NCBI GenBank assembly: GCA_902799285.1
Contig: CADCAA010000001.1
Location: 7,533 to 71,532 of the forward strand
DNA from: an uncultured Pseudomonadota bacterium
GTDB lineage: Bacteria > Pseudomonadota > Alphaproteobacteria > Rs-D84
Reading direction: 5' to 3'
Length of the DNA: 64,000 nt
The first letter of the stretch is position 1, and every line of letters begins with the position of its first letter. Shown here one piece after another: positions 5,832 through 64,000 of the stretch. Under the pieces are notes generated by a model. That model did no database searches. It saw only the letters and a list, made by a program, of their open reading frames with translations, and was not told where the DNA came from. Made by a program: the position numbers and the translations under genes.

Positions 5832-6347
5832 GTGTTGTTGTATGTTATTTATAAATCCGATGTTTGTGATGCGGATACGATAAAGATTTTGGATCAACTG
5901 ATTGCCAAGGTTTCTGATAATGCCGATTTGAAAAAGGCAAAAGAGTTGTGTGATAAAGAGGGAAAAACACTTGTGCGTTCACAACGTGAACGGATTCAGG
6001 CGGCAATTCGTGCTGCAATCGAAAAGTATCCCGAGGTGGTTGACCAGATTGATTTATCAGCCGAGATGAAAATTCAATTGTTGGTAAATGGTTTAGTTAA
6101 TACCAGAAATTCTTTGGCCGGTGGCGCGTCGGTTTGGAAAACAGCCGAGGGGAATTTTAATGGTGCGCGGTTGGCATCCGATTCTATTGCTGGTGTGGTG
6201 TTGGGGACCGCCGGTGGTTTAATCACCAGTAATATTGTTAAAAAGAATCAATTGTCGTCTGGGTTCGACAGTGTGATGTGCACAATTGGTGGTCAGACTG
6301 TGGCATCATATGGTGATGAATTCCGGGTCGGAATTACAACAAGATAA
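5832..6347 (+). CDS. Hypothetical protein (helical N-terminal half, Gly-rich hydrophobic C-terminal segment)
   Basis: ORF with a GTG start 10 nt after the previous stop and no recognisable motif. The start codon is uncertain. Confidence 0.35.
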   Translation: MLLYVIYKSDVCDADTIKILDQLIAKVSDNADLKKAKELCDKEGKTLVRSQRERIQAAIRAAIEKYPEVVDQIDLSAEMKIQLLVNGLVNTRNSLAGGASVWKTAEGNFNGARLASDSIAGVVLGTAGGLITSNIVKKNQLSSGFDSVMCTIGGQTVASYGDEFRVGITTR

Positions 6348-6363
6348 GCGCGGGGGGATATCC

Positions 6364-7167
6364 ATGAAAAAATTATTATATATTTTGTGTGCTGTATTGG
6401 TTGCCGGACCCGCTGTGGCGGCATCGCGTGCCGATATTCAGGATAATGCAAAGAATGGTGCGCGTTCGACAATTGGTGTCAGGTATGAACCGGCACGTAA
6501 ATCCAGTTTGAAATTTGACTATGTTGCGCCGGCCGTGACAAATCCTGTCGTCACAACGGAAAATGCGGATCCGGTTGATAATCGTGATGCGGAAAGGGCG
6601 GCCTGTTTATCGAATAATGTTGGTATGGATGCGACATTTGTTTGGGCGTCGCGTTATAGCAATACCGCCAGTTATGCAACCATGGTCGAAGATGTCGAAA
6701 ATCCTGAAAATAATGTTTGCTTTGCGCACGTGAAAATTGCGTCCAGTGACAGTGGTATAAATTTGTCCGATTTTGATAGTAAATATTTTCCCGTGGACGA
6801 GGTTGTCACCTGTGGCAATTGGATAAACAAAGAAAAGTTGGAAAATCGTATTTTGGATGCCAAGAAAACTGCGCGGACTTTGGCGACAATCGGTGGCGCG
6901 GTTGGTGGTGCCGGGATTGGTGTTGGTGCAATGGAATTGTTTGGAAATGAATTGATTGGGGGCGCGGTCCAGGGACAAAAGGCGTTGGATGGTGATGAAT
7001 TGTTTATATCGCAATTAAAAGTATTACGCGATGATGATAAGACGAAATATGAATCAATTAAAAAAACATTAAAACAATTGAAAGAATTGTGTGATGCCAA
7101 CCCATCTATTTCCGATTGCAAAACGGTTAAATATAATAATATATTGACCGCTTTGGGTGAGAAATAA
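6364..7167 (+). CDS. Secreted hypothetical protein, paralog of 35163-35981 (Cys-containing domain + glycine-zipper segment)
   Basis: ATG 6364. Signal peptide MKKLLYILCAVLVAGPAVAA. A long block is conserved with the 35.2-kb gene, including SYATMVEDVE.PENNVCF and TIGGAVGGAGIGVGAMELFGN.LIGGAVQGQK. Confidence 0.6.
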   Translation: MKKLLYILCAVLVAGPAVAASRADIQDNAKNGARSTIGVRYEPARKSSLKFDYVAPAVTNPVVTTENADPVDNRDAERAACLSNNVGMDATFVWASRYSNTASYATMVEDVENPENNVCFAHVKIASSDSGINLSDFDSKYFPVDEVVTCGNWINKEKLENRILDAKKTARTLATIGGAVGGAGIGVGAMELFGNELIGGAVQGQKALDGDELFISQLKVLRDDDKTKYESIKKTLKQLKELCDANPSISDCKTVKYNNILTALGEK

Positions 7168-28355: not shown

Positions 28356-29216
28356 ATGTTTCGTAAGTTTTTGATTTTTGCAATGTTTGCAACGGCGGCT
28401 GGCTATTGCTTTGCTGATTCTTATTTGCCCCAGGTGACCACGTCCGAGGTTTTTGTTAACGGTGACATAATCGAACATCGTGCGACGCAAAATGATGCGC
28501 GTGATGCGGAACCGGCGCCGGTCGCGGAATATGGTAATGTTCCTGCGTGGCCAATTGCGGGTTCGGACGCGGACGTGACTGTAAAGTGCGATGATAAACC
28601 GGGTGTAAAAAATTCTGATAATATTCGTATTGTGTCCAAAATTGGCGATGATATGATTGTTGATAATACGTTTGATTTCAATGGAACTGGTTGGACGGGT
28701 GGTGCAAATATGCTGCACGGGAACCGGATTCCAATGGGATTTGACGACGAATGCGAAAATGGTGCCGAAATGCCTTTGTTGCGTCGCGATATGCTAGAAG
28801 ATGACGGTGGCAGTGTATTGGCTGTATCGCGCAGTGGTCGTAAAAATTGCACAAAGCGTAATGGTGCGGCGGACGCCGTGTTTATGGAAATGGATAACGA
28901 TGCCGATATTGCCGAAATTGGGGTAAAATCTGATGCCCAGGCGCCAAAATCACAACCGGACCAGGTTCGTTCTTGGGTTGTCGCCAATGGCCAGACCTTG
29001 CGTGAGGTTTTACAAAATTGGTGCGACAAAGAGGGCTGGGATTTGGTATGGGCGACATCGCGCGAATACCCGATTGAGGCCAGTGCTGTATTCAAGGGTC
29101 GTTTTACAGATGTTGCGTCTGCGTTGGTGCGTAATTTTGGACGTGCGACACCTGTGCCGTATGCCAAGTTTTACAAGGGAAATTTGGTTTTGGTGATTTC
29201 TACTAACGAAGACTAA
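28356..29216 (+). CDS. TcpQ/PilL-family type IVb pilus secretin-associated protein
   Basis: Signal peptide MFRKFLIFAMFATAAGYCFA. The C-terminal block VRSWVVANGQTLREVLQNWCDKEGWDLVWATSREYPIEASAVFKGRFTDVASALVRNF...YAKFYKGNLVLVIS matches the TcpQ-domain pattern of PilL/TcpQ proteins as recalled from memory. Confidence 0.6.
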   Translation: MFRKFLIFAMFATAAGYCFADSYLPQVTTSEVFVNGDIIEHRATQNDARDAEPAPVAEYGNVPAWPIAGSDADVTVKCDDKPGVKNSDNIRIVSKIGDDMIVDNTFDFNGTGWTGGANMLHGNRIPMGFDDECENGAEMPLLRRDMLEDDGGSVLAVSRSGRKNCTKRNGAADAVFMEMDNDADIAEIGVKSDAQAPKSQPDQVRSWVVANGQTLREVLQNWCDKEGWDLVWATSREYPIEASAVFKGRFTDVASALVRNFGRATPVPYAKFYKGNLVLVISTNED

Positions 29217-29240
29217 ATGCTTGGTGGGAGATATAGAGAT

Positions 29241-30869
29241 ATGAGAAGTTTGTTGAAAAAATTTGTTGTGTTTGCGTTTCTGGGGGCTGTGCTGGCGGGC
29301 TGTGCGCGTGAACAATCGGCCAAGGTTGCGGCGACCGTTGACCAGGATTTCGTTAACGCGTATGATGCGTTTGAAATGGCAAAAAATCCCCGTGCCAAGG
29401 TGGCCAGTGGCGATACGGTATCTGTATCCGAAGGTGTATGGTTGGGGAATAAATCGATATCGCTGGAACATCGCAATAATTTGCCGGCGCAATTTGAAAC
29501 GGATACGGGCATTACGATTTTGCTGGATGAACCTGTGACGTTGCAGGTTTTGGCGAATAATATCAATACTGTGACACATATTCCGGTTAAAATCGACAGG
29601 CAAATTAATTCTGAAAAATTGAAAAAGACAATCAATGTCGCATATACCGGTAAATTGTCCGGATTGCTGTCCCAGGTTGCAACCGATTTAGACCTGTTGT
29701 GGTATTATGATAAAAATTCGATTGTGTTTTATGAAACGGAAACGCGCACGTTTTCATTGTATGCGCTGGGGACCGATATTTCGTACCAGACCGCCGTGTC
29801 GACCGATAATTCCAGTAATGTTGTGCTGGAATCAACAATGAAGGAATGGGACGAGGTTGAAAAGGCCCTGACCGCGATTGTTGGTAATGCGGAAAATTCT
29901 GATTTCACCGTGTCGCGCAGTTTGGGAACAATTACCGCCACGGCACCACCGTCTGTGTTGGCGCGTATCAGTGACTATGTTGATCGGCAAAACAAACGGT
30001 TGTCGCAATTGGTGACAATTGATGTCAAGGTTTTACAGGTATCAATCGCGAACGATTCGGCATTCGGGTTGAATTTGGCGGCGGCGATAAATTCTACATC
30101 TGGGTTGAATATCGTTGCGAACCCCAAGAATAACTTGGCGGCCGTCGGGGCCAGTTCGATGAACATCGCCGTGTTGTCAAACGCGCTGTCTGCGACAACG
30201 GGTGCGACGCACGTCGAAAACGGCAGTGTGGTCAGTGGCGCATATACAAATGATCAAATTATGAACGGATCATTGGCGCGTGGCGCGGGCAGTGCCGGCT
30301 TGATTGAGGCTTTGGCAAAACAGGGCAAGGTGTCTTTGGTGACAAATGTTGGTGTGACGACGCGTAATAATCGTGTTGCCCCGGTCAGCAATATGACATC
30401 AACCGGATATATCAAACGTTTTGAATCTCGCAACTTTACAACGGTCGAATCCAGTACCGTTGACCAGGCGGATTTACAAACTGGTTTTTCAATGCAATTG
30501 TTGCCGAATGTTTTGGAAAATGGCAAAATTTTGTTGTTGTTCAGAATGTCTGTGCGTGAATTGGTGAAAATGTCGACCCAATCGATTGGCGAGGTCACAT
30601 TGCAATTGCCCGAGGTCGAAGAACGCAGTTTTATGCAAGAGGTTATTATGGAATCCGGCCAAATGTTGGTTGTATCTGGGTTTGAAAAGCAAAAGAATAA
30701 TGACACACGTTATGGTTTGGGCGATCCTGACTTTATGGCATTGTCTGGGTCACGTTCTACGACATCCGGCCGTGATGTGTTGGTTGTTATCCTGACGCCC
30801 CAGGTATTAATCAGTCCGTTGGATGCGGAACGCAGTATCCAACAAAATTGGGGAACACCATTGAATTAA
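29241..30869 (+). CDS. Lipoprotein secretin, type IVb pilus class (PilN/TcpC/BfpB-like)
   Basis: ATG 29241 and lipobox AVLAGC. C-terminal secretin domain (GKVSLVTNVGVTTRNNRVAPV...GFSMQLLPNVLENGKILLLFRMSVREL...GQMLVVSGFEKQKNN...RDVLVVILTPQVL). Confidence 0.8.
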   Translation: MRSLLKKFVVFAFLGAVLAGCAREQSAKVAATVDQDFVNAYDAFEMAKNPRAKVASGDTVSVSEGVWLGNKSISLEHRNNLPAQFETDTGITILLDEPVTLQVLANNINTVTHIPVKIDRQINSEKLKKTINVAYTGKLSGLLSQVATDLDLLWYYDKNSIVFYETETRTFSLYALGTDISYQTAVSTDNSSNVVLESTMKEWDEVEKALTAIVGNAENSDFTVSRSLGTITATAPPSVLARISDYVDRQNKRLSQLVTIDVKVLQVSIANDSAFGLNLAAAINSTSGLNIVANPKNNLAAVGASSMNIAVLSNALSATTGATHVENGSVVSGAYTNDQIMNGSLARGAGSAGLIEALAKQGKVSLVTNVGVTTRNNRVAPVSNMTSTGYIKRFESRNFTTVESSTVDQADLQTGFSMQLLPNVLENGKILLLFRMSVRELVKMSTQSIGEVTLQLPEVEERSFMQEVIMESGQMLVVSGFEKQKNNDTRYGLGDPDFMALSGSRSTTSGRDVLVVILTPQVLISPLDAERSIQQNWGTPLN

Positions 30870-34210: not shown

Positions 34211-34798
34211 ATGTTGTATTTTTTTATCGTTTTGGTTGCATATGTGCTTGGAAGCATCCCGTGTGGACTGATTTTGACTAAATTGATGGGGCGGGGCGAT
34301 TTGCGCCGCGTCGGCAGTGGTAATATCGGCGCAACCAATGTGATGCGTGTGGGGGGGCTGCGTATGGCCGGATTGGTTTGGATTCTGGATATGGCCAAGG
34401 CGATGATTGCTGTATGGTTGGGGTGCCGTGTTGGATCCGTCGGTTTTGGCGCGTGGTGCGGATTTTTTGCCGTGGTTGGGCATTGTTTTCCAATCTTTTT
34501 GCGGTTTCACGGGGGCAAGGGCGTGTCGTCGATGTTTGGAACCGTGCTGGCGATAAATCCGATTATTTTTGTTGTGTGTGGCATCGAGTGGTTGATTGTC
34601 GCGCTGACATCTGGTAAATCATCGGCCGGGGCGGTGGTGGTTTTTTGCCTGGTGCCGATTTTGGGATTTGTGATGTCGGCCGCCGTGGGCGCAGCGTTTT
34701 TGGCAACTGCAATTTTGGTCGCAATTCGGCATCGCGAAAATATTGTGCGATTGGTTAGTGGTGTTGAATCATCCATCGAATGGAAGTGGCGGAAGTAG
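34211..34798 (+). CDS. plsY: Glycerol-3-phosphate acyltransferase PlsY
   Basis: GSIPCGLILTK...GSGNIGATNVMR motif and about 5 TM segments. Confidence 0.9.
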   Translation: MLYFFIVLVAYVLGSIPCGLILTKLMGRGDLRRVGSGNIGATNVMRVGGLRMAGLVWILDMAKAMIAVWLGCRVGSVGFGAWCGFFAVVGHCFPIFLRFHGGKGVSSMFGTVLAINPIIFVVCGIEWLIVALTSGKSSAGAVVVFCLVPILGFVMSAAVGAAFLATAILVAIRHRENIVRLVSGVESSIEWKWRK

Positions 34799-34805
34799 TA
34801 TGGAA

Positions 34806-35095
34806 ATATAACTGCACATCTACTTGTTATTTGTTCGCTCATGTAGCTGTATGTACACTACGCTCACAAATAACTGCGTATCTGTTGCATTCTATTTTGA
34901 TATTTGGTTTTTTTTGTTTGGACACTGCACTCGCAAATAACTTCGTATCTACCTCGTTCTATTTCCATATTTGGTTTTTTTGTGCTCACAAATAACTGCG
35001 TATCTGTTGCATTCTATTTTGATATTTAGTTTTTTTTGTGCTCGCCGGAATCAAAAGCATCTATGCGTTCTATTTCGATATTTGATTTTTCTTCC
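34806..35095 (+). repeat. Intergenic repeat cluster: one full hairpin element (9-bp arms 34826-34834/34866-34874, 31-nt conserved loop) followed by four tandem tail units of 55-67 bp
   Basis: Arms GTTATTTGT/ACAAATAAC around the loop TCGCTCATGTAGCTGTATGTACACTACGCTC. Tail units start at 34863, 34930, 34985 and 35041 (CTCRC...ATCT...TTCTATTT..ATATTTRG-T-run). Confidence 0.8.
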
Positions 35096-35107
35096 TTAGC
35101 AAATATC

Positions 35108-35136
35108 TTGAAAAAAAGTGCGTTTTGTGGTATAAT
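35108..35136 (+). promoter_or_regulatory. Near-consensus sigma70 promoter with extended -10
   Basis: TTGAAA (35108-35113), 17-nt spacer, TGgTATAAT (-10 at 35131-35136), upstream of ATG 35163. Confidence 0.65.
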
Positions 35137-35162: not shown

Positions 35163-35981
35163 ATGAAAAAATTGGTCTTTTTATTGTGTGTTTTGGCGGT
35201 GTTGCCGGCGTTTGCGGTGGGGCGTTCCACGATTGGTGCGCAAAGGCCTGGGGCACGCGCGATTATTTTGCCAAGTGCGCAATTGCACTCTGCGATTAAA
35301 TCATCGGCCGGGGTGGAAAATGCGACCGGTGTTGTTGCCGTTGTTGATGATGCGCCACAGCCTGCGCCAATTAATCGTGATGCGGAAAGAATGGCCTGTG
35401 TGCGCAATAATATTGGGATGAATAATACCTTTGTTTGGGCGGCCCGAGACAGCAATACGTCCAGTTATGCGACCATGGTCGAAGATGTCGAGCATCCTGA
35501 AAATAATGTGTGTTTCGTATTGGTCGGTATGCGGTCACAAGATTCGCGGATTAACGTGTCCGATATTCAACCGCGATATTTCGAGTGGGGCGAAAATATC
35601 ACCTGTGGTTCTTGGGTTGACGAGGCCAAGATGGAGGCGCGAATACTGGATGCGAAAAAGTCTGCGCGAACATGGGGGACAATCGGTGGCGCGGTTGGTG
35701 GTGCCGGTATCGGTGTTGGCGCAATGGAATTATTTGGAAATAAATTGATCGGTGGTGCAGTTCAGGGACAAAAAAATGAGGATTTGTCGTCTGTGCAATT
35801 AATTGCGTCCCAGGCCGAGGTATTCAAAGATGAAAATAATGCGCGGTATGGGTATTTTGTTGAATTGGTAGAAGAGTTGAAAGAATTCTGTGGTAAATCT
35901 GAAAATGCGAATAATCAGGATTGCAAGAATGATAAATATGCCAATTTAATTAAATGGTATGATGGGTATTACAAAAAATAG
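35163..35981 (+). CDS. Secreted hypothetical protein, paralog of 6364-7167
   Basis: Signal peptide MKKLVFLLCVLAVLPAFA. Over about 125 aa roughly two-thirds of residues are identical by eye to the 6.4-kb gene product, and some DNA stretches are near-identical. Confidence 0.6.
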   Translation: MKKLVFLLCVLAVLPAFAVGRSTIGAQRPGARAIILPSAQLHSAIKSSAGVENATGVVAVVDDAPQPAPINRDAERMACVRNNIGMNNTFVWAARDSNTSSYATMVEDVEHPENNVCFVLVGMRSQDSRINVSDIQPRYFEWGENITCGSWVDEAKMEARILDAKKSARTWGTIGGAVGGAGIGVGAMELFGNKLIGGAVQGQKNEDLSSVQLIASQAEVFKDENNARYGYFVELVEELKEFCGKSENANNQDCKNDKYANLIKWYDGYYKK

Positions 35982-36007: not shown

Positions 36008-36036
36008 TGCCCCCCTGTGTTCGCGGGGCATTTTTT
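36008..36036 (+). terminator. Rho-independent terminator
   Basis: TGCCCC-(11-nt loop)-GGGGCA followed by a T6 run. Confidence 0.65.
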
Positions 36037-36090: not shown

Positions 36091-37116
36091 ATGTCGGATA
36101 TATTTGATAAATTATTGATTTTACGTTCGCCGGGAATTGGGCCCGTTTCGTATGAAAAATTGGTGCGGCAATTTGGATCGGTCGCCGCGGCGGCGGACAG
36201 TTTGCGTTCGAATACAGAATTGGTGGATTCTGTGCGGCGCGAAATCGATGCGGCAAATGAAATTGGTGCCGTATTTGTATCTGAGGATGATGATTTTTAT
36301 CCGGTGAGTTTGAAAAATGTCAAAGGGCATCCGCCGGTTATTTGCACGCGCGGAAATTTGGAAACTTTGCGGCGGCCGTGTGTCGGTATTGTTGGAACCC
36401 GACATGCGACGGCCACAGGATTGCATTTTGTGGGTAATTTGGCATGTGCATTTGCGGAACATAACGTGGCGGTGGCGTCCGGGATGGCGATTGGCACGGA
36501 TACGGCGGCGCATCGGGGTGCACTGCGTGCGGCGGGTAATGCCCAGACTATTGCGGTTTTGGGCGGCGGTGTGGACTATATTTGGCCGTTGGAAAACGAA
36601 TCGTTGTATTATGAAATTATCGAACGTGGCGTCGTGGTCAGCGAAATGCCAATTGGTTTTGTACCAAAGGGGTCAAACTTTGTGCAACGTAATCGATGGA
36701 TTGCCGGTATCGCCAGTAAGTTGATTTTGAGTGAGGCTGATTTGAATTCGGGCAGTATGCGCACCGCGCGATTCGCAATTGATATGGGGCGCGAATTGTG
36801 GGCTGTGCCGGGGCATCCGGCGGATGCGCGGGCCATGGGACCGAATTCTTTGATTGCGTCGGGTGCGGCAAAACTTTGTTCCGGGGTGCAGGATTTTTTC
36901 GATTCAGATTCGGGTGTGGTGAAAAATGGTTCAAAAAATGTGAAAAATTCAGAATCTGAAAATTTAATTATGGATGCGTTGGGGGTGGTTCCTGTTTCTG
37001 AATCTGTATTGGCAGATGTTGTCAAAAAATCAGTTTCGGAAATCAAACGCGATTTGGTTGTATTGGAATTACGCGGATTGGTGCGAAAAGTCGATGGCGG
37101 TTATGTTCGTGTGTGA
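36091..37116 (+). CDS. dprA: DNA-processing protein DprA (Smf)
   Basis: Rossmann-like core GIVGTRHATATGLHFV...VASGMAIGTDTAAHRGAL and a C-terminal winged-helix-like tail. Confidence 0.85.
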   Translation: MSDIFDKLLILRSPGIGPVSYEKLVRQFGSVAAAADSLRSNTELVDSVRREIDAANEIGAVFVSEDDDFYPVSLKNVKGHPPVICTRGNLETLRRPCVGIVGTRHATATGLHFVGNLACAFAEHNVAVASGMAIGTDTAAHRGALRAAGNAQTIAVLGGGVDYIWPLENESLYYEIIERGVVVSEMPIGFVPKGSNFVQRNRWIAGIASKLILSEADLNSGSMRTARFAIDMGRELWAVPGHPADARAMGPNSLIASGAAKLCSGVQDFFDSDSGVVKNGSKNVKNSESENLIMDALGVVPVSESVLADVVKKSVSEIKRDLVVLELRGLVRKVDGGYVRV

Positions 37117-37529: not shown

Positions 37530-38792
37530 ATGCAGGCAGCAACAAAAAACATAGATGTGAAAACAATCAAAGATATGATTGCACAGCAGATGGATTTTGC
37601 GGCTTGGACTTCGTGGATTGCGCCTTTGTCCTTTGAAATTTCTGATAATGTTTTGGTGTTGGCCGCGCAAAATCAATTTTCGGCCGATTATATTTCCAGT
37701 GTTTATGGTGCAACATTACAAAATGTCGCGCGCGCATTTGATTTGGATGTTAAATTAGTTGTGCGTGGAACTGCGCCGGTTTCCAAAATTGCAAATGATA
37801 ACAATGTGCAATCCTATGCCCCGGTTATGGATGCGGTGGCCCCGGTTGCATTTGATGCGTTTATCGCGTCGGATGAAAATGCGTTTGTGTTGTCGACCGC
37901 AAAAAAGGTGGCAACGGGTGCGGTATCTTTTTCACCGTTGTTTATTTATGGGGCGGCGGGCACAGGCAAAACTTTGTTGGCGGATTGCATAAAATCTGAA
38001 TCACAAAATGCGATTTTGATGACCGGTGGTCAATTTGTTGCGGAATTTACACGTGCATTACACAACAGAACAATTTTCGCGTTCAAAGATTTTTGTCGCA
38101 ACTGTGATACGTTTATTTTAGACGATGTCCAGGCTTTGGCGGGTAAACGCGCAACAATGGATGAATTTTTGCAGTTGGTTATGGATTTGCGCGCATCTGG
38201 TAAAAATGTTGTTTTGACGGCCCCATGTTCACCAAATAATTTAACAGGTTTTGACCGTCGTGCACAATCGTTGTTGGCGTCGGGCTTGGTTGCAGATATT
38301 ACTGCGCCAAATGCAAATGTTAAACGCACAATGTTGGTTCGGGCAGGTGTTGCCACCGATGTCGCGGATGCAATTGCGAATCGTATTGCAAATGATGGCC
38401 ACATGATAAGTGGTGTTGCAAATAAAATTAAAACATATTCTGAATTGATGGGTGGTCGCGTCACATTGGAAATCGCGGAACATTTGTTGGGTGATACATT
38501 GGAAAAATTCAAGACACCAATTGCTATGGTAAAAAATATGTGCGAAAAATTGGGTGTTTCATATGATGCGATTTGTGGGGCGGGGCGTGCGCGTCAATTG
38601 GTTTTAGCACGTCAGATGATAATGGTTGTTTTGAAAAATTCTACACGTTTGTCTTTGTCTGAAATTGGTCAATATGTTGGCAATCGTGATCATGCAACCG
38701 TTATGTACGCAATAAAACAAATTGAAAAGATGCAGGCGTCCGATTTGATGTTGAGCGCACAGATTGCACAATTAATTGCGGAATGCAAGTAA
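37530..38792 (+). CDS. dnaA: Chromosomal replication initiator DnaA
   Basis: Start set at ATG 37530 after the RBS GGAAAGGAG. Walker A GAAGTGKTLL and the C-terminal DNA-binding region SLSEIGQYVGNRDHATVMYAIKQIEK. Confidence 0.9.
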   Translation: MQAATKNIDVKTIKDMIAQQMDFAAWTSWIAPLSFEISDNVLVLAAQNQFSADYISSVYGATLQNVARAFDLDVKLVVRGTAPVSKIANDNNVQSYAPVMDAVAPVAFDAFIASDENAFVLSTAKKVATGAVSFSPLFIYGAAGTGKTLLADCIKSESQNAILMTGGQFVAEFTRALHNRTIFAFKDFCRNCDTFILDDVQALAGKRATMDEFLQLVMDLRASGKNVVLTAPCSPNNLTGFDRRAQSLLASGLVADITAPNANVKRTMLVRAGVATDVADAIANRIANDGHMISGVANKIKTYSELMGGRVTLEIAEHLLGDTLEKFKTPIAMVKNMCEKLGVSYDAICGAGRARQLVLARQMIMVVLKNSTRLSLSEIGQYVGNRDHATVMYAIKQIEKMQASDLMLSAQIAQLIAECK

Positions 38793-38808
38793 TATAATGA
38801 AATATAAT

Positions 38809-38862
38809 GGCATATCTGCTGGATTCCGCCAACTGAATTCTATTTTGATATTTGGTTTCTGG
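38809..38862 (+). repeat. Solo tail unit of the 34.8-kb repeat family
   Basis: GCATATCTGCT...GAATTCTATTTTGATATTTGGTTTC matches the tail units at 34863-35095. It sits between convergent dnaA and the topoisomerase gene. Confidence 0.5.
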
Positions 38863-42110: not shown

Positions 42111-42129
42111 TTTAATGAATAAATAAAAA

Positions 42130-42157
42130 ACTTTGGCATTCGCCAAAGTTTTTTTTA
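42130..42157. terminator. Bidirectional rho-independent terminator between dnaJ and pgsA
   Basis: ACTTTGGC-ATTC-GCCAAAGT flanked by an A-run and a T8 run. Confidence 0.75.
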
Positions 42158-47789: not shown

Positions 47790-48557
47790 ATGGTGCATAT
47801 ATCTGAATTGATTCAGTTGGCGGTAATTGTTGCCTTGGTTTGGTATTTTTATAAAAAGTTGATACGCAATACTTCGTCTGAAAAAATGGTGCGCGGGGTG
47901 TTGGGATTGGTACTGTTATGGGTATTCAGTTTCGTTTGCGTATTGTTAAAATTGGATTTGATTGGTGGATTTTTGCATTGGGTGGCGTTGTTTTTATCCA
48001 TCAGTTTGATTGTTGTGTTTCAACCAGAATTGCGAAAGTTTATGGCACTGATGGGCAGTGTCCAAGGTTGGCGTAAATTATTTGCTGGGAAAAATGGTGA
48101 TTCTGTGCAAGCACGTAATACAGCCCCATTGGATGCGATTGTCAGTGCGGTGGAATATATGTCGGCAAAACACACGGGGGCATTGATTGTTTTTCCAACC
48201 ACATTGGATGAATCTGTGATTGAACGCAAAGGTGTTGCAGTCGATGCGAAAATAACATCTGAATTATTGCTGACCATATTTTTTAATAAAACGCCGTTGC
48301 ATGATGGCGCGGTGATTGTTGAAAATAATCGGATTGCCTATGCAGGGGCAATATTGCCACTGTCGCAACATAATTTGAATTGGAAATATGGAACGCGTCA
48401 CAGGGCGGCATTGGGATTGAGTGAGGTGTCGTCGGCCACTGTATTAGTTGTGTCCGAAGAAAGTGGTGATATATCAATCGCAGAAAAAGGCAAAATTACC
48501 AAATACGACGATTTGAAAAAATTGCGTGCAAAACTGGAAAAAGTTATGAAAATGTAA
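47790..48557 (+). CDS. cdaA: Membrane-bound diadenylate cyclase CdaA (DisA_N domain)
   Basis: Three N-terminal TM helices. DAC motifs TPLHDGAVIV and GTRHRAALGLSEVSSATVLVVSEESG. Confidence 0.85.
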   Translation: MVHISELIQLAVIVALVWYFYKKLIRNTSSEKMVRGVLGLVLLWVFSFVCVLLKLDLIGGFLHWVALFLSISLIVVFQPELRKFMALMGSVQGWRKLFAGKNGDSVQARNTAPLDAIVSAVEYMSAKHTGALIVFPTTLDESVIERKGVAVDAKITSELLLTIFFNKTPLHDGAVIVENNRIAYAGAILPLSQHNLNWKYGTRHRAALGLSEVSSATVLVVSEESGDISIAEKGKITKYDDLKKLRAKLEKVMKM

Positions 48558-48565
48558 AAATTAAT

Positions 48566-48598
48566 GCCACTGAAAATTACTTTTAGTGGCGTTTTTTT
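48566..48598 (+). terminator. Rho-independent terminator after cdaA
   Basis: GCCACT...AGTGGC hairpin followed by a T7 run. Confidence 0.6.
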
Positions 48599-48704: not shown

Positions 48705-49823
48705 ATGGAATTTTCTGTTTTTCGTCAGGTTTTAATCCGTGCGCTGGGGCATATGCAATCCATTGTTGAAAAGCGTGCAACTTTGCCAATTTTGATGAAT
48801 GTAAAGTTGGATGTATCTGATGATTTGGTTTTGTCTGCGACCAATGTTGATTTGGAATTGGTTGAACATGTGGCGGCGGATATTACTTTGGCGGGCAAAA
48901 CAACTGTGCCGGTCCAGATGTTATATGATATTGTTCGCAAATTGCCTGATGATGCCGAAATTTCTTTCAAACAGGTTGGTGACCAATTGGTCGTGTCCAG
49001 TGGTCGTGCGGTATTTCATTTGCCAACTTTGCCGGCGGAAAATTTCCCGGCCATGGCGGGCAGTAATTTAACCACAAAGTTCCAAATGACAACTGGTGAT
49101 TTGGCACACTTGATTAACCAAACAAAATTCGCAATTCCAACGGATGATGTGCGTTATCATTTGGGCGGTATTTATTTCCATATTTCCGAGGAAGGCAAAT
49201 CAAAAATGTTAACCGCGGTTGCAACCGATGCCCAACGTTTGGCATTGTGTGCTATGCCGGCACCGGTGGACAGTGCCGCTATGCCATCTGTGATTTTGCC
49301 ACGTCGTGTTATTGGTGAGTTATCTAAATTGTTGGAAGATGCCAATGTTGATGATGTCACGGTTGAATTATCTGATACCAAGGCGCGCTTTACAATTGGT
49401 GCCGCTATTTTGACCAGTAAATTGGTTGATGCACAATATCCAAACTATCGCGTTGTGATTCCAAAAGGCAACGATAAAATTGCCGTTATGGACAGAAAGC
49501 AATTTGTGAACGCGGTTGATTTGGTGTCGGTCGCATCTGTTGATAAAACAAAGTCTGTGCAATTGACGTTTTCAACAAACAAATTGGTTATTAACGCGTC
49601 CAGTCCGGATGCTGGAACCGCGACCCAGGAATTGGATGTTGAATACAATGGCGATAGTTCGTTTACCGTTGTGTTTAATGTGAAATTCTTGCTGGATGTC
49701 GCGGGCCAGGTCGAGGGCGAAAAGTTCCAAATGGAAATGCAGGATCCATTATCGCCAACAACGATTAAATCTACGGACAAAAAGACGGATGCGTTATTCG
49801 TATTAATGCCCATGCGCATGTAA
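48705..49823 (+). CDS. dnaN: DNA polymerase III beta sliding clamp
   Basis: 372 aa with the typical N-terminus (...LGHMQSIVEKRATLPILMNVKL) and three-domain length. Confidence 0.9.
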   Translation: MEFSVFRQVLIRALGHMQSIVEKRATLPILMNVKLDVSDDLVLSATNVDLELVEHVAADITLAGKTTVPVQMLYDIVRKLPDDAEISFKQVGDQLVVSSGRAVFHLPTLPAENFPAMAGSNLTTKFQMTTGDLAHLINQTKFAIPTDDVRYHLGGIYFHISEEGKSKMLTAVATDAQRLALCAMPAPVDSAAMPSVILPRRVIGELSKLLEDANVDDVTVELSDTKARFTIGAAILTSKLVDAQYPNYRVVIPKGNDKIAVMDRKQFVNAVDLVSVASVDKTKSVQLTFSTNKLVINASSPDAGTATQELDVEYNGDSSFTVVFNVKFLLDVAGQVEGEKFQMEMQDPLSPTTIKSTDKKTDALFVLMPMRM

Positions 49824-49850
49824 TAAATTAAATTTTATGGATTCTTATCA

Positions 49851-50071
49851 CAAATACCAACCCTTATGTAGGTCTACTACACCGCGGGTTGGTATTTGTT
49901 TCCAATAATCTCATAAAATTTAATTTCTTGAAAAAAAAGTGAAGTGCTTGTTGGCGGTTCGTTTATGTAGCATTTGTACACTGCACTCACAAATAACTTC
50001 GCATCTGTGCCGTTATTATTGATTTTTGGAACACCGATTGTTTCCAATAATCTCATAAAATTTAATTTCTT
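49851..50071 (+). repeat. Composite intergenic repeat: perfect 13-bp-stem hairpin (49851-49898), degenerate hairpin-family copy (about 49945-50030) and a 34-bp perfect direct repeat (49896-49929 and 50038-50071)
   Basis: CAAATACCAACCC / GGGTTGGTATTTG around the loop TTATGTAGGTCTACTACACCGC. TTGTTTCCAATAATCTCATAAAATTTAATTTCTT occurs twice, 142 bp apart. Confidence 0.75.
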
Positions 50072-50161
50072 AGAAAAATTGCCGATTGGTGATTTTTTGT
50101 TGCATTTAACAATGTGTTATTTATAATTGGTGCGTAAATTTTTAATCAAAGAGGTATTATT

Positions 50162-50731: not shown

Positions 50732-50881
50732 TCGCGAAATTCTGCGGAATTTTTTATAATTTATAAAATTGGCGAAGTTTTTTTGCCAATTTTTTTTGTG
50801 TTTGGATTTTTTTTTACGGTTTTTTGTGGTATAATGTGTATGCAAACAAATTTATAAACCAACCGATGGGGGGAGACAAAG

Positions 50882-53390: not shown

Positions 53391-53412
53391 TACAGGGTTT
53401 TTGTGTGTGGGT

Positions 53413-53438
53413 AAAGGGTCGCGGTAACGTGACCCTTT
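53413..53438. terminator. Hairpin terminator between convergent genes
   Basis: AAAGGGTC-(10-nt loop)-GACCCTTT. Confidence 0.6.
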
Positions 53439-53442
53439 GTTA

Positions 53443-57295: not shown

Positions 57296-57727
57296 ATGAA
57301 TTTGTGGCGGAATATTTTTGCAGGATTGTTTGTCGCGATGTTTGTCGGGGCGGCAAATGCGGTGCCGGCGGTGGTGCGGTATATCGTTGATGGCGATACT
57401 TTTTCGGCCGGTGTAAAATTACAGGATGATACGGTTGTGTCTGTGCGGGTCAGAATCCGCAATGTTGATACGCCGGAAATTCATGGCGAATGTGTTGATG
57501 AAATTGTTGCGGCAAATGTTGCGCGTGACCGTTTGGCTGAACTATTGCCGATTGATTCAGTTGTTGAATTGGAAAATGTCAAGGATGATAAATATCTGGG
57601 CCGGATTGATGCCAATGTCAAAGATACGCGCGGTCGTGATGTTGGGCGGATTTTGATTCGCGAAAAGTTGGGACGGGCGTATAGTGGGGGCAAACGAACC
57701 AGTTGGTGTAAACAGGACAAAATATAA
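57296..57727 (+). CDS. Secreted thermonuclease (SNase/staphylococcal nuclease-like)
   Basis: Signal peptide. VDGDTFS...VRIRNVDTPE...DKYLGRIDANV...GRILIREKLGRAY matches SNase catalytic-core patterns. Confidence 0.8.
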   Translation: MNLWRNIFAGLFVAMFVGAANAVPAVVRYIVDGDTFSAGVKLQDDTVVSVRVRIRNVDTPEIHGECVDEIVAANVARDRLAELLPIDSVVELENVKDDKYLGRIDANVKDTRGRDVGRILIREKLGRAYSGGKRTSWCKQDKI

Positions 57728-57925
57728 CGGGCATCTGCTTGTTAATGGCTTGCTCATGTAGCTATATGTACACTACGCTCGCCATTAACGGCGCATCTGC
57801 CGCGTTATATTTTGTCCTAAAAATGATGGCCATCTGCTTGTTAATGGCTCGCTCATGTAGCTATATGTACACTACGCTCGCCATTAACGGCGCATCTGCC
57901 GCGTTATATTTTGTCCTAAATTTTG
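57727..57925 (+). repeat. Two tandem 99-bp copies of the hairpin repeat element
   Basis: Arms GTTAATGGC (57741-57749, 57840-57848) and GCCATTAAC (57781-57789, 57880-57888) flank the 31-nt loop T[TC]GCTCATGTAGCTATATGTACACTACGCTC. The flanks carry GCATCTGC direct motifs. Confidence 0.85.
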
Positions 57926-63945: not shown

Positions 63946-64000
63946 AATTTGGGGGCAAATGTCCCCATTTTTATTTTTTGAATATTGAAAATATTTCCCA

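Follow-up and report, generated by a model that had tools for sequence, protein, structure and literature searches.

The 64-kb window analysed here, the whole stretch of 64,000 nucleotides taken from contig CADCAA010000001.1 of an uncultured alphaproteobacterium of the Rs-D84 order, carries several copies of what looks, on sequence grounds, like a previously undescribed family of palindromic repeats of tiny-genome gut Alphaproteobacteria, with about 110 bases per unit and a likeness to relatives of the repetitive extragenic palindrome (REP) and bacterial interspersed mosaic element (BIME) type. Members of this order have genomes below 1 Mb and are presumed to depend on partner cells (PMC12306168). 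We see about an even chance that two things hold together: that the family is a lineage-specific, interspersed and tandem-prone set of palindromic repeats of the reduced Rs-D84 genomes (Candidatus Enterousia and its relatives), and that each unit would be a transcribed hairpin at the 3' end of a message, serving in cis as a transcript-end device (terminator, stabiliser and/or processing site).

A complete unit is a single long bulged hairpin of 105-120 nt with a stem of about 35-40 bp, as derived from 29 complete units aligned by MAFFT (alignment A1) and from their RNAalifold consensus. Its outer helix (H1) is 9 bp long and varies in sequence; the 5' arm is rich in A and the 3' arm rich in U, the latter being TTCTATTTTGATATTTGG in one subfamily. 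The second helix (H2), which reads TAAYGG-C-AYA-[TC]-TGC on its 5' strand and GCA-[TC]-TRY-R-CCRTTA on its 3' strand, is interrupted by a 2x2 TC/TC mismatch retained in 28-29 of the 29 copies on each side. The inner helix (H3) is hypervariable, being 9 bp long in one subfamily and up to 18 bp long, with a wholly different sequence, in another (AAAAACAAAAACGATGGC, GCGGTCCCGGCAGC and AAATAAACCCGTTTGC are examples); in the first subfamily it is capped by a second TC/TC mismatch and a GC/GC clamp. At the tip lies an invariant apical element of 22 nt, TCATGTAGC-N3-4-TGTACACTAC, within which a 4-bp mini-helix (TGTA/TACA or GTAG/CTAC) is possible. The hairpin has a polarity, as the covariance model (CM) built for it scores 95-125 bits on the sense strand and 28-54 bits on the antisense strand.

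This anatomy changes an earlier picture. The preliminary description of this DNA had presented a 9-bp stem around a 31-nt loop set between flanking direct repeats. Both stem and loop are present as described, but they are only the inner part of a continuous bulged helix of 105-120 nt, and the alignment together with the consensus fold replaces the flat picture. The supposed CATCTGC direct repeats are in fact the two strands of one helix carrying the conserved TC/TC mismatch, and what had been called a "TTCTATTTTGATATTTGG-type tail" is indeed there, but in the role of 3' arm of the outer helix.

The arms of these variable helices change together. Standard pairs occupy 95.9% of 920 cells of the 29-copy alignment versus 73.3% after shuffling, and the covariation score is 0.595 versus 0.163 in shuffles; arm changes, which the preliminary description had allowed might turn out to be uncompensated, are doubly changed in 198 cells where 54.5 were expected (for each of the three measures, 0 of 500 shuffles reached the observed value). 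Compensated changes are found in 25 of the 32 pairs, all nine H1 pairs have changed on both sides, and pairing falls to 31-54% in a control in which the 3' partners are slid by 1-3 columns. As the 29 aligned sequences had been picked for good arm complementarity, we repeated the pair count on the 36 distinct full-length sense matches of a covariance-model search (R1): among 1,144 scored pairs, 92.4% were Watson-Crick, 2.4% G-U, 1.5% A-C and 3.7% other. Independently of any alignment, cognate 50-nt flanks gave a mean duplex energy of -31.8 kcal/mol versus -15.8 +/- 6.8 for non-cognate flanks, and beyond the end of H1 there was no complementarity above the control (3.8 nt cognate versus 3.7 nt non-cognate). 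The idea that a conserved loop with co-varying stems points to a folded single strand is thus supported on independent copies from outside the window. Covariation alone is nevertheless no proof of selection on RNA, because G-U pairs are few and a templated process at the DNA level could also keep the arms complementary; closely related pairs of copies were too few to tell templated from selected compensation.

Inside the window the family is represented by the following features, of which those given with no score or family are read directly off the letters.

57714-57818, plus strand: U1, a complete hairpin (CM 108.6 bits, E = 2e-24; RNA fold -52.9 kcal/mol, z = -9.4).
57714-57733 (5' strand) and 57798-57818 (3' strand), plus strand: outer and second helices of U1, enclosing the stop codon TAA of the upstream open reading frame (ORF) at 57725-57727.
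57734-35 and 57796-97, plus strand: TC/TC mismatch of U1.
57741-49 with 57781-89, plus strand: inner helix of U1, GTTAATGGC/GCCATTAAC.
57754-57776, plus strand: invariant apical element of U1.
57819-57917, plus strand: U2, the tandem copy (partial CM match at 57831-57898, 65.9 bits).
57840-48 with 57880-88, 57853-75, and 57902-17, plus strand: inner helix, apical element and 3' outer arm of U2, without a matching 5' outer arm of its own.
34796-34915, plus strand: complete unit after plsY (CM 101.7 bits), its hairpin at 34797-34904 beginning on the stop codon TAG (34796-98).
34826-34834 and 34866-34874, plus strand: arms of the inner helix of the plsY unit, GTTATTTGT/ACAAATAAC.
34917-35095, plus strand: three right halves of units in tandem, repeating every 55-67 nt (repeat families D3, D4 and D9).
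38787-38857, plus strand: internally deleted copy that immediately follows the stop codon of dnaA, in the gap between dnaA and the convergent gyrB (CM 21.1 bits, E = 0.05).
49821-49930, plus strand: diverged but complete unit whose start falls on the dnaN stop codon (fold -41.5 kcal/mol, z = -9.7).
49937-50078, plus strand: chimeric unit with its right-hand module repeated at 50038-50078 (CM 54 bits; repeat family D18).

The coordinates and sequences of the preliminary description were all correct on re-reading of the window, and Pfam confirms plsY, dnaA, gyrB, dnaN, efp, tolB and an acyltransferase there. Two 99-bp tandem units do follow the gene that had been called a nuclease (57720-57818 and 57819-57917, 95% identical to one another, with the plsY copy 74% identical), while the label itself corresponds to a sub-threshold SNase match (E = 0.027), and we speak of an SNase-like ORF. 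The plsY arms do differ from GTTAATGGC/GCCATTAAC at three positions, all of them compensated, with a loop that differs at 1 of 31 nt; the plsY unit also has a run of eight Ts at 34908-34915, after TGG. Each of the right-half units behind it consists of an inner 3' arm, CGYATCT, the outer 3' arm TTCTATTTYGATATTTRG and a T-run, without apical loop or left half. In the dnaA copy the left outer arm, CATATCTGC and the left inner arm GATTCCGCC are fused straight to the outer 3' arm TTCTATTTTGATATTTGG; an orthologous dnaA end (L029) bears an intact unit, which supports an internal deletion in the window. The member reported after dnaN (49851-49898) is real, though diverged. It has an outer helix (49829-43 with 49913-27), a 13-bp inner helix (49851-63 with 49886-98) and an apical loop shortened to TTATGTAGGTCTACTACACCGC, and it gives only weak partial matches to the covariance model (E = 0.4-0.7); we regard it as a complete member because it has its own outer helix and starts on the dnaN stop codon. 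In the chimeric unit (49937-50037) the left inner arm GTTGGCGGT is unpaired with the right arm ACAAATAAC.

Some further details of the hairpin deserve mention. The apical element holds an ATG directly before a TAG (TAA in two relatives), that is, a start-stop pair, with no obvious Shine-Dalgarno sequence upstream; in the window it lies at 57756-57761, 57855-57860, 34841-34846 and 49965-49970. At columns 56 and 77 of alignment A1 (57755 and 57775 in the window), C56+A77 becomes T56+G77 in five copies, C-A and U-G being isosteric wobble pairs; this change is linked to a compensated change from C-G to U-A at columns 54/79 and may be structural or may reflect mere subfamily ancestry. The long-stem subfamily has a run of Gs, YTAGGGG..GGG..GGG, just 3' of the right outer arm, possibly a G-quadruplex (L011 around 7115-7145, L013 on the minus strand around 6490-6510, L025, L012, L015, L024 and L027). 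The same motif occurs on the left side of second and third array units, and also after an ftsK stop codon where the element is absent (L027, 2683-2660, minus strand).

The family reaches beyond the window and seems to stay within one lineage. When 185,579 species genomes were scanned for the core pattern, 8 matches came back, at 6 loci in 5 genomes, all of them metagenome-assembled genomes of gut or rumen Alphaproteobacteria (Candidatus Enterousia, RUG13827, RUG13870, UBA3760 and RGIG9538), and a scan of metagenomes added 24 loci. A search of public genomes, proposed along with the preliminary description, has thus placed the family outside the window and, among these species genomes, only in assemblies of the Rs-D84 type. 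With a relaxed core pattern we counted 54 units in the window and 30 outside loci (Rs-D84/Candidatus Enterousia assemblies, rumen or gut metagenomes). Copy number is low, with 1-3 exact cores per reference genome and about 5 loci in the window, where the 29-nt core occurs three times against 0.00 expected (0 in 100 shuffles). The DnaN of the window is encoded identically on the European Nucleotide Archive scaffold STEW19-1_SAMEA5383994 scaffold_95, with 99.97% DNA identity over 21 kb.

With the nearest ORFs on both strands taken into account, the gene upstream of each unit runs in the unit's own direction; the few apparent exceptions are shadow ORFs antisense to dnaN or the SNase-like gene, or second units within arrays. 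The statement that all window copies sit at the 3' ends of plus-strand genes (plsY, dnaA, dnaN, SNase-like) was borne out. The distance to the stop codon could be assessed for 29 copies, those close to the end of a sense ORF of 80 codons or more: in 12 of them the left ATCT comes 19-21 nt after the end of the stop codon, which therefore abuts the first H1 pair, and in 6, U1 among them, the stop codon is the TAA inside the conserved TATAAY box of H2. Two 118-nt copies of one contig, behind the unrelated genes ftsK and yebC, begin to be identical at the stop codon itself. At no fewer than 11 independent junctions between tandem genes the element is oriented like both genes, and at none is it reversed. 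At L016 (1270-1320, 1400-1440) the element has a 3' arm complementary to the last 8 or so codons of a trxB-like gene (..DAIAYLNKL*), whose C-terminus we take to be native from its likeness to E. coli TrxB; as these codons are apparently native, the outer helix can reach into coding sequence.

Arrays are mosaics in which complete units stand beside halves, chimeras and units with internal deletions (34917-35095, 49937-50037, 38787-38857). One locus found in two close relatives (L003 and L022) carries the array B-C-B' in one and A-B-C in the other, and in a strain 99.97% identical to the window (L032) the whole 142-nt block 49937-50078 is present twice, that unit being the only difference (dnaN-efp array, 49896-50078 compared with 11190-11475 of L032). 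These two differences point to unequal recombination. Elements stand at orthologous gene ends with stems that differ among lineages (dnaN 5, ftsK 4, yebC 4, SNase-like 3), at protein identities from 59% to 98%. We found no target-site duplications, the flanking direct repeats averaging 4.32 nt for cognate versus 4.08 +/- 1.15 nt for non-cognate flanks. Six contigs (L010, L014, L019, L023, L033 and L034) end inside a unit or within about 65 nt of one, L033 and L034 inside, and the repeats thus break metagenome assemblies.

It might be argued from these data that the units are functionless palindromic satellite DNA, whose arms are matched by templated correction (template switching or hairpin mismatch repair at the fork) and which persists where insertions are tolerated. 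Near-perfect Watson-Crick arms with few wobble intermediates would fit this idea, as would the outer arm at L016, which runs into native-looking coding sequence as if copied from it, the tolerance of chimeric, half and deleted units, and a copy number that differs between strains of 99.97% identity. However, templated correction should remove the TC/TC mismatches, yet 28-29 of 29 copies have them, and the apical element of 22 nt does not vary either; strict polarity, a precise start at the stop codon and retention at orthologous sites despite strong deletion pressure speak against it too. We therefore regard this explanation as improbable.

The suggestion that the units act at transcript ends comes from their anchoring to gene ends together with the slot that they occupy. 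Canonical terminators with A-tract, hairpin and U-tract are found in the window at 36013, 42125 (bidirectional), 48563, 50765, 53410 and 63950, and the element-bearing ends (plsY, dnaA, dnaN and the SNase-like ORF) have none, the two being mutually exclusive in the window. The spans of five of these terminators are 42125-42154, 48563-48593, 50765-50793, 53410-53441 and 63950-63967. The elements precede the next promoter-like site, such as TTGAAA-17-TATAAT at 35108-35136. In most copies the 3' arm of H1 has 5-8 Ts per 9 nt (3-4 in 4 of 36), and the subfamily with the arm ..TTTCGATATTT has an extra run of 6-8 Ts beyond the helix, a clear T-run being confined to that subfamily. A canonical intrinsic terminator has a GC-rich stem of 5-14 bp with a loop of 3-8 nt and a U-tract immediately behind it. 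A terminator pattern scan did not flag whole elements; it flagged only small internal hairpins in U1 (57789-57802) and U2 (57888-57901).

We infer from this arrangement that a unit is transcribed in sense as the 3' end of the upstream mRNA and folds into the bulged hairpin of about 105-120 nt, standing in the slot where other transcription units carry ordinary terminators. In cis, the hairpin could then terminate transcription and/or block 3' exonucleases or be a site of processing. As its base would lie beneath the terminating ribosome, an effect on translation termination is also conceivable, in the manner of REPs less than 16 nt from a stop codon, which down-regulate translation (PMC12306157). 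A long hairpin with two free helices and invariant unpaired motifs is the outcome that a partner reading the structure, a protein or an enzyme, would leave behind; this partner would probably make contact at the invariant apical element and at the UC/UC loop, with an RNase III-type or another RNA-binding protein as candidates. Turnover in copy number and sequence would take place at the DNA level: tandem units would recombine unequally, dispersed copies would convert one another, and gene ends would gain or lose units. Of this picture, the sequence family, the complementary and co-varying helices, the position and orientation of the units and the changes in arrays are directly shown, and transcription, a function at the RNA level and recognition by a protein are inferred. 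The preliminary description had listed REP/BIME-like elements, targets of a REP-associated tyrosine transposase (RAYT), terminators or stabilisers, and small RNAs as candidates. This was a reasonable list, which the present data narrow toward the terminator or stabiliser, though not to a single entry.

The small-RNA entry may be considered here, as it concerns the same box and the same U-rich arm. Independent small-RNA genes would use the TATAAT-like box in H2 as a -10 element and yield an RNA of about 85 nt ending in the U-rich 3' arm. In most copies the 5' strand of H2 does read TATAAT, TATAAC or TCTAAT, and a U-rich tract does follow the hairpin. Still, neither a -35 box nor a TG extension is conserved, the TATAAT-like box is base-paired and often lies within the last codons or the stop of the upstream ORF, nothing complementary to the apical motif that could be a target in trans was found within the window, and Rfam gives no match. 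Small-RNA genes of this kind seem to us very unlikely.

Several observations weigh against the transcript-end device. G-U pairs are rare (2.4%), and the G-U to A-C ratio of 28:17 is what strand composition predicts (about 1.7:1), so that there is no RNA-specific wobble signature. In 30 of 31 sources it is the G-rich strand that carries the element, the window having a positive skew throughout, and no copy stands behind any of the 23 minus-strand ORFs of the window; for that reason the orientation of transcription and that of replication are confounded, and GC skew was of no use in separating them. An ftsK end without an element exists (L027), comparison with L001 placing the array 0-2 nt from the stop codon, and there are chimeric or internally deleted copies (49937-50037, 38787-38857), which together make individual copies dispensable. 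Finally, a lower stem that is AU-rich and mismatched is a poor fit to an efficient intrinsic terminator.

As to the surroundings of these measurements, GC skew lies between +0.1 and +0.3 across the window and approaches zero only over a minus-strand block at 18-28 kb, with no switch of sign near dnaA. The dnaA (37461) and dnaN (48705) genes are 10 kb apart, and gyrB is convergent on dnaA.

The strict bias to the G-rich strand and the lack of G-U enrichment keep alive another explanation, possible in our view but doubtful: a non-autonomous mobile element or recombination site of single-stranded DNA (ssDNA), of REP/RAYT, IS200/IS605-derived or attC-like type. On this account the G-rich strand would fold as lagging-strand template, and an HUH or tyrosine recombinase encoded elsewhere would read the apical element and the mismatches and place the units by stop codons. 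Strand-locked orientation is a hallmark of replication-coupled ssDNA transposition, and the copies are all on the G-rich strand, with none after a minus-strand gene. Stems that are almost purely Watson-Crick with no excess of G-U, nearly identical 118-nt copies at unrelated genes of one contig, and one empty ftsK end where others are occupied speak for it as well. There are no target-site duplications (4.3 versus 4.1 nt), and IS200/IS605-type insertion likewise leaves none; conserved unpaired bases in a variable stem recall the recognition logic of attC and REP. On the other hand, none of the 65 window ORFs scanned against Pfam and NCBIfam carries a transposase, integrase or HUH domain, the genomes are below 1 Mb, and genomes of that size have usually been purged of mobile elements; orthologous gene ends also keep their units. 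No attC core sites (RYYYAAC/GTTRRRY) are present, GTAG is apical and not at the foot as in REPs, homologous recombination accounts for the observed changes in arrays, and anchoring to stop codons has no known basis in such enzyme families.

A bolder and rather unlikely formulation would make the family either a new class of stop-codon-anchored cis device or a transposase-less ssDNA hairpin element targeted just after the stop codon on the lagging-strand template. In its cis version, the terminating ribosome would melt the outer helix, and a dedicated lineage-specific factor would read the apical element and the UC/UC loop. If true, such a device would couple translation termination to transcript termination or decay in genomes below 1 Mb. 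Between these possibilities we continue to favour the terminator or stabiliser, for the gene-end anchoring and the terminator slot already described.

Features of the apical element and of the neighbourhood raise one more explanation, namely that the units are double-stranded binding sites of a nucleoid or topology protein (compare BIME-2 and gyrase, or RIP and integration host factor, IHF), or DNA-uptake signals, at the ends of transcription units. The palindrome TGTACA within the apical element, the regular tandem spacing, the location between transcription units and the presence of dprA and pilus/secretin genes in the window are compatible with this. We consider it highly improbable, as binding to a duplex leaves unexplained why long helices vary freely yet stay complementary, uptake sequences are short and are found in either orientation, within genes too, and no IHF-like, DnaA-box or CtrA-box consensus was seen by eye.

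Database searches gave the family no other identity. With Rfam 15 (gathering and E-value thresholds) the window yielded two tRNAs only, and the element produced microRNA-model noise of 18 bits against thresholds of 84-98. BLAST of the unit against 72,556 plasmids and 50,697 phages gave no match, and a single viral contig matched in the 22-nt core only, at a model E of 0.57, which we ascribe to chance. A match to a known insertion-sequence end or to a miniature inverted-repeat transposable element (MITE), raised beforehand as a possibility, did not appear in the Rfam, plasmid and phage searches or in the duplication test, and the remark that the window contains no transposase agrees with the domain scan of its 65 ORFs. 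Several further candidates were rejected: a loxP or dif/Xer site, the resemblance being partial and by eye only (ATAACTTCGTAT; GCGCAT-N8-TTAT); a bridge RNA or omega-RNA, there being no IS110, TnpB or IscB gene nearby; recoding like that of the selenocysteine insertion sequence (SECIS), the stop codons being mostly TAA; and a self-cleaving ribozyme, with no Rfam match.

Other observations concern the neighbouring genes. Two paralogous ORFs, 6286-7167 (293 aa) and 35163-35981 (272 aa), share 74-81% DNA identity over about 400 bp and have no Pfam or NCBIfam match, and the plsY repeat array stands immediately upstream of one of them. A 762-aa ORF at 61657-63945 matches no family and has internal repeats about 300 nt apart (repeat family D6). 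The window also encodes a CdaA-type diadenylate cyclase (47790-48557), a type that is probably uncommon in Alphaproteobacteria. DprA (36091-37116) and a secretin/TcpQ pair (28356-30869) are encoded there too, possibly a hint of pilus function or competence.

The family is of interest for several reasons. It provides a case study for structure inference and a system for studying 3' structures close to the ribosome, with an anchoring to the stop codon much tighter than that of E. coli REPs. Arrays of 100-350 nt kept behind core genes (dnaA, dnaN, ftsK, plsY, yebC) in genomes below 1 Mb suggest either a function or an unusually effective selfish mechanism. In practical terms, the repeats disrupt metagenome assemblies and create copy-number differences between nearly identical strains.

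Among known systems, the family would belong to the broad class of bacterial interspersed palindromic repeats, together with REP/BIME, the enterobacterial repetitive intergenic consensus (ERIC), Correia elements and Rickettsia palindromic elements (RPEs). In its way of working it would be closest to transcribed palindromes of the REP/BIME, Correia and ERIC kinds. The placement goes to the broad class only, because the defining features of REP, MITE and attC were not found and no Rfam family matched. The REP/BIME sequences of Enterobacteria and Pseudomonas come close in several respects: they too are extragenic, lie at gene 3' ends, often between convergent genes, form imperfect palindromes in tandem mosaic arrays and are lineage-specific in sequence; in addition to the stop-proximal effect on translation mentioned above, REPs are known to stabilise upstream mRNA (PMC12306157). 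A whole BIME is a long palindrome with a conserved central linker and resembles the Rs-D84 element in architecture. All Rs-D84 units are likewise intergenic at 3' ends, many of them in tandem. However, a REP is a short palindrome (20-40 nt) conserved in sequence, and the unit here is 105-120 nt long with only its loops and mismatches conserved; the GTAG/GTGG expected at the 5' foot is represented by an invariant GTAG that is apical (ATGTAGC), about 43 nt inside the hairpin. Unlike REP/BIME, the Rs-D84 element has a single orientation, a start locked to the stop codon and a low copy number, and no RAYT gene is known for Rs-D84 genomes, with none in the 65 window ORFs scanned. About 11% of E. 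coli REPs lie within 15 nt of a stop codon, compared with 12 of 29 Rs-D84 elements that abut it and 6 that overlap it.

Rickettsia palindromic elements are similar in size (about 100-150 nt), dispersed in reduced alphaproteobacterial genomes and partly translatable, and 6 of 29 upstream ORFs likewise end inside the Rs-D84 element. RPEs insert in frame within genes, whereas the Rs-D84 elements lie at or after the stop codon, and there is no sequence relationship. Correia repeat enclosed elements (CREE) and ERIC, also called intergenic repeat units (IRU), are imperfect palindromes of about 100-150 nt that lie in untranslated regions and are transcribed. Their long hairpins are RNase III substrates and alter mRNA stability. 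They have conserved terminal inverted repeats, both orientations and, in Correia, a TA duplication, in contrast to the variable termini, one orientation and lack of duplication seen here. Conserved terminal inverted repeats are expected of a MITE as well, and the outermost 9 bp are the most variable part of the Rs-D84 unit; nor is there a target-site duplication (4.32 vs 4.08 +/- 1.15 nt).

Integron attC sites share a position directly after an ORF, often over its stop codon, a structure that is kept while stem sequence is free, and conserved unpaired bases that set polarity, with one active strand. In place of RYYYAAC...GTTRRRY, however, the Rs-D84 element ends in ...TATAAYGG and CCRTTMTMT..., its stems having GTT...AAC in the reverse order, and the terminal loop, the variable part of attC, is here the invariant part. 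No Phage_integrase match that could represent intI was found in the window, and the neighbours are housekeeping genes (dnaA, dnaN, plsY, ftsK, yebC) and not a cassette array. Intrinsic terminators, including conserved ones specific to a lineage such as the tuberculosis rho-independent terminators (TRIT) of Mycobacterium, also lie at the ends of transcription units with A-rich 5' and U-rich 3' flanks, and in RNase III sites of the phage T7 R1.1 type an internal loop likewise separates the upper stem from the lower; unlike intrinsic terminators, the Rs-D84 hairpin is far longer (about 35-40 bp plus a 22-nt conserved cap), with an AU-rich and mismatched base. What distinguishes the Rs-D84 family among all these systems is its anchoring to the stop codon, its strict polarity, its two hypervariable helices, and its invariant UC/UC and apical motifs.

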